From a virus (taxonomy: Duplodnaviria; Heunggongvirae; Uroviricota; Caudoviricetes), in the IMG/VR virus record IMGVR_UViG_3300013837_000016: a stretch of 4,161 bases of DNA, one strand, 5' to 3'. A program made the translations under genes and the position numbers. The first letter of the stretch is position 1, and the number at the start of each line of letters is the position of its first letter. Under the pieces are notes generated by a model. The model made no database searches, was not told the DNA's origin, and was given only the letters and a program-made list of their open reading frames with translations. Shown piece by piece: positions 1 through 4,161 of this stretch.

Positions 1-2
1 AG

Positions 3-968
3 CCCCGTGACGAGGTTAAACCTGTACGGTTAGGGGAAATCATTACTGACTACACTGACACGCTTGACAGGCGTCTGAGGAACGGAGAAGAGTCAGATAC
101 CCTGAAGACCGGAATCGAAGAACTTGATGCCATCACCGGAGGGATGAACGCGGAAGACCTGGTGATAATCGCTGCTCGTCCTGGTATGGGGAAAACCGAA
201 CTGGCGCTGAAGATTGCCGAAGGCGTTGCAAGTCGCGTTATTCCTGGTTCTTACGTCCGGCGCGGAGTGTTGATTTTCTCGATGGAAATGAGCGCATTGC
301 AGATTGCAGAGCGAAGTATTGCCAACGCCGGGAGGATGTCGGTTAGCGTGCTGCGAAATCCTGCATCGATGGATGACGAGGGCTGGGCACGTGTTGCTAA
401 CGGCATGAGTCAGCTTGCAGATTTGGATGTATGGGTAGTCGATGCCTCGCGGTTATCGGTCGAAGAAATACGCTCAATCGCAGAACGGCACAAACAGGAA
501 AATCCAAACCTGTCACTCATCATGGCGGATTATCTTGGCCTGATTGAGAAGCCGAAAGCAGACCGCAACGACCTCGCAATTGCTCACATCTCAGGAAGCC
601 TTAAGGCGATGGCGAAAGACCTGAAAACGCCTGTTATCTCCCTGAGTCAGCTTTCGCGCGATGTTGAGAAGCGACCAAACAAACGCCCGACAAACGCAGA
701 TTTGCGTGATTCAGGAAGCATTGAACAGGACGCAGACTCAATCATCATGCTCTATCGGGAAGCAGTATATGACGAGAACAGTAGCGCCGCACCATTTGCT
801 GAAATCATTGTGACGAAAAACCGTTTTGGCTCGCTTGGTACGGTTTACCAGCGGTTCTGTAACGGACACTTTGTTGCATGTGACCAGGATGAAGCCAGAC
901 AGATTTGCACAGCATCAAATGCACCCGCTGCACGTGGCAGGCGATATGCACAAGGGGCTGACGTATGA
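3..968 (+). CDS. DnaB-family replicative DNA helicase (P22 gene 12-like), 5'-truncated at window edge
   Basis: Open frame runs from position 3 with no upstream stop to TGA at 966-968. The translation contains ...[37 protein letters not shown]..., which matches the DnaB C-terminal RecA-like domain: the TGG loop followed by a Walker A motif (AARPGMGKT). Downstream DxxG/SQLSRD-type motifs are typical of DnaB helicases. It is not lambda P-like. Confidence 0.88.
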
Positions 969-993
969 CCATCTACATCACTGAGCTTGTAAC

Positions 994-1025
994 AGGCCTG
1001 CTGGTAATCGCAGGCCTTTTTATTT
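994..1025 (+). terminator. Rho-independent terminator, tR2-like, immediately after the helicase gene
   Basis: Perfect 8-bp inverted repeat AGGCCTGC (994-1001) / GCAGGCCT (1010-1017) with an 8-nt loop, followed directly by TTTTATTT (1018-1025). Its position between the replication genes and the nin region matches tR2 of lambdoid phages. Confidence 0.7.
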
Positions 1026-1040
1026 GGGGGAGAGTAAATC

Positions 1041-1247
1041 GTGGCTGAGTTAATTTTCTCTGCATTGAGGATTCTCGGTGCTATGTGGATGGTGTCGACG
1101 TTCATTGTGGTTGTCGGAAGTTTTGTCCGGTTGGTAGGCGAAGGTAAAGACCTGGTGGGTGTGCTTTTCGGTAGCATTTTCCTGTGGGTGATTATCGGTG
1201 TTATGCCTGTCGCTGTAGCAAAAATGGCGTGGCGTTTTGTTAGTTGA
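1041..1247 (+). CDS. small hydrophobic protein (68 aa, predicted two transmembrane helices), unknown function
   Basis: GTG start at 1041 preceded by a strong Shine-Dalgarno GGGGGAGAG (1026-1034); stop TGA at 1245-1247. The translation has two hydrophobic stretches (MWMVSTFIVVVGSFV and VLFGSIFLWVIIGVMPVAVA) separated by the charged loop GEGKD. It occupies the slot between tR2 and ninB. Confidence 0.5.
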   Translation: MAELIFSALRILGAMWMVSTFIVVVGSFVRLVGEGKDLVGVLFGSIFLWVIIGVMPVAVAKMAWRFVS

Positions 1248-1254
1248 GGTAACG

Positions 1255-1701
1255 ATGAAGCAAATATACATGCTTCGCAACGAAGCAATCAGAAACAATG
1301 TCATAGACGCAATACTCTCACTCCCCATCGACGACAAGTCACCTCACGAAGTCCACGTTAAAGAAGCCAAGCGGAGTAATCCTCAAAACCGCCTTATGTG
1401 GGCGTTATTGCAGGACGTATCGCGTCAGGTGCTTTGGCATGGAGAGAGACTTGCGCCGGAGGACTGGAAAGATCTGTTCACTGCCCTGTGGCTTAAGACC
1501 AAAAAAATGGAGCAAAGAAGTGCGCCTGGTATCGACGGTGGCGTTGTCATGCTTGGCGTGCGTACTAGCAAAATGCGAAAGGCCAACATGACTGAGCTTA
1601 TCGAAATCATGTTCTGGTTCGGCTCAGAGCGCAACGTGCGGTGGAGTGATGACTCCAGGCGAGAGTATGAATGGTCACAACGAAAAGGGAAGGCTGCATG
1701 A
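1255..1701 (+). CDS. ninB: NinB (Orf) recombination mediator protein
   Basis: ATG at 1255 with SD GAGG 6-9 nt upstream. The 148-aa product (MKQIYMLRNEAIRNN...NPQNRLMWALLQDVSRQVLWHGERL...[20 protein letters not shown]) matches lambda NinB/Orf in length and in conserved blocks (QNRxLWAxLxDVSRQVxWHG, KWSDE-like C-terminus). The six-frame ORF start at 1237 is an upstream in-frame codon lacking an SD. Confidence 0.9.
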   Translation: MKQIYMLRNEAIRNNVIDAILSLPIDDKSPHEVHVKEAKRSNPQNRLMWALLQDVSRQVLWHGERLAPEDWKDLFTALWLKTKKMEQRSAPGIDGGVVMLGVRTSKMRKANMTELIEIMFWFGSERNVRWSDDSRREYEWSQRKGKAA

Positions 1702-2225
1702 CTATCAAATCAAATACGCCATCACACGACAAGGACTGCTGGCAAACGCCGCTTTGGCTTTTTGATGCGCTGGATATTGAGTTTGGATTCTGGCTGGACT
1801 CGGCAGCGAGCGACAAAAATGCTCTGTGCGCTCACTGGCTAACTGAGGCCGACGACGCGCTAAATTCTGAGTGGATAAGCCACGGTGCAATCTGGAATAA
1901 CCCACCGTACAGCAATATCAGGCCGTGGGTGGAAAAAGCCGCTGAGCAGTGCATACAACAGCGACAGACGGTAGTTATGCTTGTGCCAGAGGATATGTCA
2001 GTCGGATGGTTCAGCAAGGCTCTGGAGAGTGTTGACGAAGTTCGCATCATCACTGATGGACGGATTAATTTTATCGAACCATCGACAGGGCTGGAGAAGA
2101 AGGGAAACAGCAAAGGCTCCATGCTGCTGATTTGGCGACCGTTCATCAGTCCTCGACGGATGTTTACTACCGTATCCAAAGCGGCATTGATGGCGATCGG
2201 GCAGGGCGTCAGGAGGGCGGCATGA
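1698..2225 (+). CDS. phage-type DNA N6-adenine methyltransferase (orphan; Dam-like phage family)
   Basis: ATG at 1698 overlaps the ninB stop (ATGA), with SD AAGGGAAGG upstream. The 175-aa product carries the catalytic motif IV NPPY (..[14 protein letters not shown]..) and an N-terminal CWQTPxxLF block typical of small phage N6-adenine methyltransferases. The six-frame ORF start at 1671 is an upstream in-frame codon. Confidence 0.75.
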
Positions 2226-2374
2226 GGCGACAGCGACGAAGTTTCACCGACATCATCTGCGAAAACTGCAAATACCTTCCAACGAAACGCTCCAGAAATA
2301 AACGCAAGCCAATCCCAAAAGAATCTGACGTAAAAACCTTCAATTACACGGCTCATCTGTGGGATATCCGGTGA
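2222..2374 (+). CDS. ninE: NinE protein
   Basis: ATG at 2222 overlaps the methyltransferase stop (ATGA), with SD AGGAGG 5 nt upstream. The 50-aa product [50 protein letters not shown] is near-identical to my recollection of lambdoid NinE. It was too short to appear as a separate ORF in the track, whose entry begins at 2132. Confidence 0.85.
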
Positions 2375-2400
2375 CTAAGACATCGTGCGAGGAAATGACA

Positions 2401-2760
2401 ATGGATTATTCACAGTTAAGTGATTTTGAAATTAACAAGCGAGTGGCAATTTGCTGTGGATTTGCTCCCGAAGATTGCGAAATCGCAAAGTTGGGAACAT
2501 CAATCGTTGGTGTTGAGTGGGATGACGAAACTGGTTATGCAATAAAAACGGTTGATTACTGTAAAAGCCCATCAGACGCAGAGCCGATTATCGTAGAGAA
2601 CAGAATTGGCATTATTCCAGCGCCAGAAAATGGATTATGGAAGGCAGCGCATAGAAAAGTTGGCAGTGATAGTACCCCATATCATATGAATCAAGATGAA
2701 AACCCACTCCGCGCTGCCATGATTGTCTTTCTCATGATGCAGGACGCCAATAATGCTTAG
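2401..2760 (+). CDS. acidic hypothetical nin-region protein (119 aa), unknown function
   Basis: ATG at 2401 with SD GAGG (2389-2392) 8 nt upstream; the ATG at 2395 abuts the SD, and the track's 2359 start overlaps ninE. Stop TAG at 2758-2760. I count 19 Asp/Glu against 10 Lys/Arg, giving a strongly acidic protein with 4 Cys. It has no lambda counterpart at this position; it may belong to a conserved phage DUF family, which I cannot confirm without a search. Confidence 0.6.
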   Translation: MDYSQLSDFEINKRVAICCGFAPEDCEIAKLGTSIVGVEWDDETGYAIKTVDYCKSPSDAEPIIVENRIGIIPAPENGLWKAAHRKVGSDSTPYHMNQDENPLRAAMIVFLMMQDANNA

Positions 2761-2929
2761 CCCATCCCAATCCCTTCAATACCAGAAAGAAAGCGTCGAG
2801 CGGGCTTTAACGTGCGCTAACTGCGGTCAGAAGCTGCATGTGCTGGAAGTTCACGTGTGCTCCGATTGCTGCGCAGAACTGATGAGCGATCCGAATAGCT
2901 CAATGTACGAGGAAGAAGACGATGGCTAA
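2753..2929 (+). CDS. ninF: NinF protein (58 aa, Cys-rich)
   Basis: Not in the ORF track (below the size cut-off). ATG at 2753 with SD AGGA 8 nt upstream; it overlaps the previous gene's stop by 8 nt. The translation [58 protein letters not shown] is near-identical to lambda NinF and contains CxxC...CxxCC. Stop TAA at 2927-2929. Confidence 0.85.
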
Positions 2930-3533
2930 ACCAGCGCGAAGACGATGTAAAAACGATGAATGCCGGGAATGGTTTCACCCTGCATTCGCTAATCAGTGGT
3001 GGTGCTCTCCAGAGTGTGGAACCAAAATAGCACTCGAACGACGAAGTAAAGAACGCGAAAAAGCGGAAAAAGCAGCAGAGAAGAAACGACGACGAGAGGA
3101 GCAGAAACAGAAAGATAAACTGAAGATTCGAAAACTCGCCTTAAAGCCCCGCAGTTACTGGATTAAACAAGCCCAACAAGCCGTAAACGCCTTCATCAGA
3201 GAAAGAGACCGCGACTTACCATGTATCTCGTGCGGAACGCTCACGTCTGCTCAGTGGGATGCTGGACATTACCGGACAACTGCTGCGGCACCTCAACTCC
3301 GATTTGATGAACGCAATATTCACAAGCAATGCGTGGTGTGCAACCAGCACAAAAGCGGAAATCTCGTTCCGTATCGCGTCGAACTGATTAGCCGCATCGG
3401 GCAGGAAGCAGTAGACGAAATCGAATCAAACCATAGCCGCCATCGCTGGACTGTCGAAGAGTGCAGGTCCATCAAGGCGGAGTATCAGCAGAAACTCAAA
3501 GACCTGAGAAATAGCAGAAGTGAGGCCGCATGA
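2922..3533 (+). CDS. ninG: NinG (Rap) recombination-associated structure-specific endonuclease
   Basis: ATG at 2922 overlaps the ninF 3' end by 8 nt, with SD GAGGAAGAAG upstream. The 203-aa product starts [33 protein letters not shown]..., has a lysine/glutamate-rich coiled segment and a C-terminal Cys/His cluster (CISCG...HYR...CVVCNQHK). Length and sequence match lambda NinG/Rap. Confidence 0.9.
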
Positions 3534-3736
3534 CGTTCTCAGTAAAAACCATTCCAGACATGCTTGTTGAAGCATACGGAAACCAGACAGAAGTAGCACG
3601 CAGACTGAAATGTAGTCGCGGTACGGTCAGAAAATACGTTGATGATAAAGACGGGAAAATGCACGCCATAGTCAACGACGTTCTCATGGTTCATCGCGGA
3701 TGGAGTGAAAGAGATGCGCTATTACGAAAAAATTGA
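3530..3736 (+). CDS. ninH: NinH, small Fis-like DNA-binding protein
   Basis: ATG at 3530 overlaps the ninG stop (ATGA). The 68-aa product [39 protein letters not shown]... is near-identical to lambda NinH and contains a helix-turn-helix-like segment ([18 protein letters not shown]). Confidence 0.9.
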
Positions 3737-4161
3737 TGGCAGCAAATACCGAAATATTTGGGTAGTTGGCGATCTGCACGGATGCTACACGAACCTGATG
3801 AAAAAACTGGAGACGATAGGATTCGACACCAAAAAAGACCTGCTTATCTCGGTTGGCGATTTGGTCGATCGCGGTACAGAGAACGTCGAATGTCTGGAAT
3901 TAATCACATTCCCCTGGTTCCGAGCTGTACGTGGAAACCATGAGCAAATGATGATTGATGGCTTATCAGAGCGTGGAAACGTCAATCACTGGCTGCTTAA
4001 TGGCGGTAGTTGGGTCTTTTATTTCGATTACGCCAAAGAAACCCTGGCAAAAACCTTTGCCCACAAAGCAGAAAAACTTCCATTAACACACAAAACGGGG
4101 GGCAAAAGAAAAAAACCGCCCCTTAACAACATCCCCGGGCCGCGGGGCCCCCCCCACCCCC
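3714..4161 (+). CDS. ninI: NinI-like Ser/Thr protein phosphatase (lambda PPase family), 3'-truncated; tail from about 4087 unreliable
   Basis: ATG at 3714 with SD GGAG 8 nt upstream, overlapping ninH by 23 nt. This frame is absent from the ORF track because no stop occurs before the window end. The translation [80 protein letters not shown]... carries the metallophosphoesterase signatures GDLHG, GDLVDRG and GNHE. After about 4087 the translation becomes implausible. Confidence 0.85.

Follow-up and report, generated by a model that had tools for sequence, protein, structure and literature searches.

The 3' tail of a lambdoid prophage ninI record is very probably the unedited end of a Sanger-type read

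The last 148 bases (4014-4161) of the 4,161-base stretch of DNA analysed here, which we call the window, are very probably the unedited low-quality end of a single Sanger-type read, where we infer the platform, the single-read coverage and the behaviour of the base-caller. The tail is not a real biological feature. It is a commonplace sequencing artefact, and the DNA beneath it is ninI, an ordinary and widespread lambdoid phosphatase gene. The evidence for the artefact is found in the graded loss of identity to related genes, in the way in which the wrong bases copy their neighbours, and in the restriction of all the variants to this one record.

The open reading frames and the relatives of the window identify it as the nin region of a lambdoid prophage, with its genes in the following order.

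Up to 968: 3' part of a dnaB-like replication gene (P)
Between the dnaB-like gene and ninB: an ORF of 68 aa
Between the 68-aa ORF and dam: ninB
1671-2225: dam-type methylase
2222-2374: ninE ORF
Between ninE and ninF: ninX
2753-2929: ninF
2922-3533: ninG
3530-3736: ninH
From 3714, open at the 3' end of the window: ninI

Reference contigs were obtained through an exact-protein look-up of NinG, which returned eight independent contigs. One of these is L006 (GCA_036292745.1), from E. coli, whose alignment to the window needs no gaps. The ninI gene occupies the slot of the nin operon that lies between ninH and Q, and the relatives L001-L011 share this gene order, with Q coming next. The start of ninI at 3714 falls 23 nt inside the 3' end of ninH, an overlap that is also annotated in relatives and is the kind of translational coupling usual in the nin operon. 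The ninG gene is intact in the window, and its homologue at 923-1534 of L001, a prophage of E. coli GF43, is a RefSeq pseudogene with an internal stop. Genes for tRNA-Asn and tRNA-Thr stand just downstream of Q in L001 (2959-3114) and in L003 (2759-2914); their carriers are relatives with a short (172-aa) Q antiterminator, and the window stops before that region.

Upstream of ninI the window differs from its relatives in two respects. Over 1-912, within the dnaB-like gene, there are 20 mismatches to L006, 16 synonymous and 4 non-synonymous, with 16 of the 20 at codon position 3. Decay at the 5' end was looked for and none was seen, and these mostly synonymous, third-position differences have every appearance of ordinary divergence under purifying selection. 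From 913 to 4013 only one mismatch remains in 3,101 nt. This step in divergence from L006 and L011, from about 2.2% to 0.03%, suggests that recombination has left a mosaic breakpoint within the replication gene, near 912/913. Bases 233, 252, 317 and 602 are private to the window among only about 16 covering loci. The sole difference to L006 in 913-4013 is a G>A change at 2374, common to none of about 96 aligned loci, which converts ninE codon 2372-2374 from TGG to TGA (W51*) and leaves a NinE of 50 aa instead of 58. Because the exact 50-aa protein is carried by 84 contigs in the public protein collection, some of them naming it as a non-partial "NinE family protein", the truncated NinE is probably a natural allele and not a sequencing error.

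The 5' part of ninI is reliable. Over 3714-4013 it is identical to L006 at 300 of 300 positions, and to L001 from 3731 on. The product matches lambda phosphatase 1G5B over residues 1-134 (E = 1.8e-75; phmmer, PDB), the alignment reaching residue 134 by pairing KRKK with KDKK, and the N-terminal metal-binding motifs GDLHG, GDLVDRG and GNHE are present at residues 18-77 as VGDLHG, GDLVDRG and RGNHE. The downstream His-ligand motifs ICHADYP and GHTP, whose histidine metal ligands are His139 and His186 in lambda-PP, are both found in the full-length L006 protein and are absent from the ninI translation of the window. Their absence is a property of the record and not of the phage: the calls at that place are noise, and GHTP would lie beyond the record's end. 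Opposite the divergent C-terminal stretch the L006 protein reads ...KDKKYVICHADYPFDEYEF, and the L006 sequence includes ...GGTTCTTTAATCTCGATTACGACAAAG...ATCATCGAACTGGTGAGCAAAGATAAAAAATATGTCATCTGCCACGCCGAT....

Compared with L006, the gene falls into four parts.

3714-4013, plus strand: reliable 5' part of ninI, residues 1-100, lambda-type Ser/Thr phosphatase by its motifs and its identity to the references
4014-4086, plus strand: early decay zone, still recognisably ninI, 62 of 73 bases identical, 11 mismatches
4087-4115, plus strand: heavy decay zone with the ninI register kept, 17 of 29 bases identical, 12 mismatches
4116-4161, plus strand: terminal noise of C/G-rich homopolymer calls, 12 of 46 bases identical, 34 mismatches, chance level

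The same gradient is found with three further relatives: in bins of 25 nt all 25 bases are identical up to 3999, after which the counts are 22, 21, 20, 16, 15 and 9 of 25 and, in the last bin, 2/12. The error density thus climbs toward the end of the record after a long error-free stretch, as a read-end artefact would have it, and the progressive increase in mismatches that the first-pass annotation proposed to look for among related ninI genes is present. That annotation also took the sequence as a coherent phosphatase up to about 4086. This does not hold, with 11 private substitutions and seven false residues already within the 73 nt from 4014. All megablast alignments, whether to the 73 phage records or to the 1,185 from E. 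coli, end exactly at 4086, and sensitive blastn against E. coli genomes extends the alignment to 4115. Up to that point there are no indels relative to L006, and the match of 17/29 in register over 4087-4115 is equalled by only 2 of the 13,109 other offsets tried along the two strands of L006. For 4116-4161, a gapped local alignment to the true continuation of ninI, made to recover any signal hidden by indels, scores below the mean of the shuffles, and none of 131 loci covers this segment. The claim that all resemblance is lost after 4086 is therefore right for 4116-4161 and wrong for 4087-4115, where ninI is still in register and fades by about 4115. Likewise, the bases 4087-4161 are unreliable as had been proposed, but the unreliable stretch starts at 4014, 73 nt earlier.

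The composition of the tail is as unusual as its alignment. It holds the runs GGGGGG (4097-4102), AAAAAAA (4109-4115), CCCC (4119-4122 and 4133-4136) and GGGG (4144-4147), followed by CCCCCCCC at 4148-4155, an A and CCCCC, and the 3' end of the record is CCCCCCCCACCCCC. The homopolymer-rich end and its translation are thus as first described: runs of at least four bases hold 46 of the last 75 bases, against a mean of 4.0 and a maximum of 17 in other 75-nt windows of 1-4013, and true ninI has just 6 bases in such runs over the tail span. This homopolymer excess is far beyond chance. T occurs 3 times in the last 75 bases, compared with 20 in true ninI, and C occurs 33 times, compared with 16 in true ninI and at most 28 elsewhere in the window. 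Retention, sorted by the true base, is 40% for T, 52% for G, 74% for A and 76% for C, a pattern that points to T-channel dropout.

The wrong bases are not random. Between 4014 and 4115, 22 of 23 miscalls equal the true base directly before or after them, where 9.3 ± 2.1 are expected when the wrong calls are permuted among the error sites (0 of 2000 permutations reach 22). The relation accounts for 10 of 11 miscalls in 4014-4086 and for all 12 in 4087-4115, and the GGGGGG and AAAAAAA runs exist because the miscalls in the latter zone copy neighbouring true bases. In 4116-4161 the relation is gone (12 of 34, with 11.4 expected), so this segment is noise. The 11 substitutions of 4014-4086 comprise 7 non-synonymous and 4 synonymous changes, with 6 of the 11 at codon position 1, in contrast to the 4 non-synonymous and 16 synonymous differences of the naturally diverged 1-912. 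The errors therefore mirror the physics of a trace, with bleed from neighbouring peaks and channel dropout, and not selection. Base-calling decay at a read or contig end, already named as a cause from the homopolymer runs, gains support from both the rise in mismatches and the copying of neighbours.

A course of events can be proposed for such a tail. The read would cover the 3' edge of an amplicon or clone, 4.2 kb long, from a lambdoid prophage nin region. As it faded, adjacent electrophoresis peaks would have merged and no longer been resolved, and a base-caller that emits one base per expected peak position would have preserved both length and register. Each position would increasingly have been given the identity of an adjacent, stronger peak. 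Such neighbour copying would turn mixed sequence into homopolymer runs, for example GGT into GGG, ATCATC into ACACAC, TGGTGAG into GGGGGGG, GATAAAAAAT into GAAAAAAAC and ATCATCGAAC into ACACACAAAA. T would be the weakest channel and would drop out, and the final calls, about 46 of them, would be pure noise, mostly C and G.

A rival origin is a cloning-vector, adaptor or assembly junction somewhere after about 4115, at which genuine ninI would be joined to non-phage DNA, such as a polylinker, that was itself poorly read. CCCGGG (SmaI/XmaI), CCGCGG (SacII) and GGGCCCCCCC, strings that also occur in common polylinkers (pBluescript, pGEM-T), are found in the last 46 nt, whose identity to ninI is at chance only. 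Noise made of C and G homopolymers should yield strings of this kind by chance, however, and in local alignments of the tail to five polylinkers (pBluescript, pGEM-T, pGEM-T Easy, pUC19 and pCR2.1), between 43 and 496 of 500 composition-preserving shuffles scored as well. The in-register ninI at 4087-4115 excludes a junction before 4115 and takes away the ground for the one suggested there by the first-pass annotation, and the decay is continuous, beginning 100 nt upstream of any possible junction. We consider this origin very unlikely, and it would itself still be an artefact.

The read-end reading also agrees with the distribution of the variants. A panel of ninI sequences was assembled by scanning viral contigs for the natural form of the 27-mer at 4012-4038, which yielded 120 loci (at least 120 matches) and 88 distinct sequences; the references are identical at 4012-4038 by construction, and the other bins are free. 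Relative to these 88 references, 45 bases of 3714-4161 are private to the window. The first of them does not come before 4014, so that the 300 nt ahead of that position have none. The 11 substitutions of 4014-4086 are among them and alter 7 amino acids. The 27-mer of the window at 4012-4038, ahead of the tail, carries four private bases and has no exact match in viral, genome or metagenome contigs, and at least 120 viral contigs contain its natural version, which serves as a positive control. A 30-mer of the tail has no exact match in genome and viral contigs, nor does a 34-mer in metagenome contigs, so the same tail, whose presence in independent genomes had been put forward as a possible refutation, was not encountered. 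Of the complete E. coli genome records with a blastn match, 1,146 in number, the best is 81% identical over 3990-4115. No alignment passes 4115 among complete E. coli genomes or phage records, and a sensitive blastn search of the tail against phage records gave merely two short chance matches. The variants are confined to this record and have no counterpart in independent sequences.

This distribution bears directly on the idea that the tail is genuine biology, either because it marks a junction of mosaic recombination or because this particular prophage has a ninI whose 3' half is hypermutated or pseudogenised. Lambdoid phages are highly mosaic, and the window itself has a divergence step relative to L006 near 912/913. 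Mosaic junctions, however, are sharp switches to a natural allele, and here the change is graded over 150 nt with the noise exactly at the end of the record. All the variants are private against the 88 references, the errors copy adjacent bases and ignore codon position, T is nearly eliminated, and nothing similar exists in the phage, plasmid-free E. coli, viral, genome and metagenome collections. The product would additionally be devoid of the two downstream metal-ligand motifs of the L006 protein. A natural mosaic or pseudogene is thus largely refuted, and we regard it as highly improbable. Equally slim is the chance that 4116-4161 is a badly read genuine junction, such as a GC-rich insertion or rearrangement that truncates ninI in the source prophage; if this were true, the phage would be without a functional lambda-type phosphatase. 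Homopolymer tailing (terminal-transferase dC/dG) or another deliberate synthetic addition at a clone end is scarcely credible, as the terminal C-run with which the record closes is only 8+5 bases and interrupted, the mixed G, A and C runs before it grade out of ninI, and the sharp boundary after clean sequence that tailing would leave is not seen. Targeted hypermutation of the DGR type was also considered and rejected, as all four bases are hit, the miscalls copy neighbours, and the window contains no reverse transcriptase or template repeat.

As a read end, the tail matters only in practice. Trimming belongs at 4013 and not at 4086, or 4014-4161 may instead be marked as low quality, and these bases should not be annotated. 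Any NinI protein or annotation that draws on them contains 7 false substitutions, and after these comes an invented C-terminus rich in proline and glycine. In databases, tails like this can give rise to spurious protein variants, to mosaic junctions that do not exist and to false low-complexity domains. In the present case the corrupted NinI seems not to have propagated, because its 149-aa product was not found in a collection of 15 billion proteins.

Two known systems help to place this record. The first is lambda-PP (NinI, PDB 1G5B), of the PPP/metallophosphoesterase family. Residues 1-100 of the window product are a bona fide homologue, encoded in the canonical place after ninH. From residue 101, the translation diverges from every natural NinI, and the C-terminal 40% of the protein, including ICHADYP and GHTP, is not represented in the window.

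The second is the decay of a Sanger or capillary read at its end, which the tail resembles in most respects. The error rate rises monotonically to the end of the record, the miscalls copy neighbouring peaks, homopolymer runs are inflated, the T dye channel is lost and the final tens of bases are noise, and the stretch so affected forms the very end of a record that is itself partial. A low-quality 3' read tail of this kind, as Ewing and Green are said to have described in 1998, is normally removed by phred quality trimming, Lucy or manual editing. The window differs from usual Sanger read ends, where indels and N calls are frequent, in that its sequence up to 4115 shows neither N calls nor detectable indels, and this indel-free register could be explained by a caller with fixed peak spacing that always calls a base.
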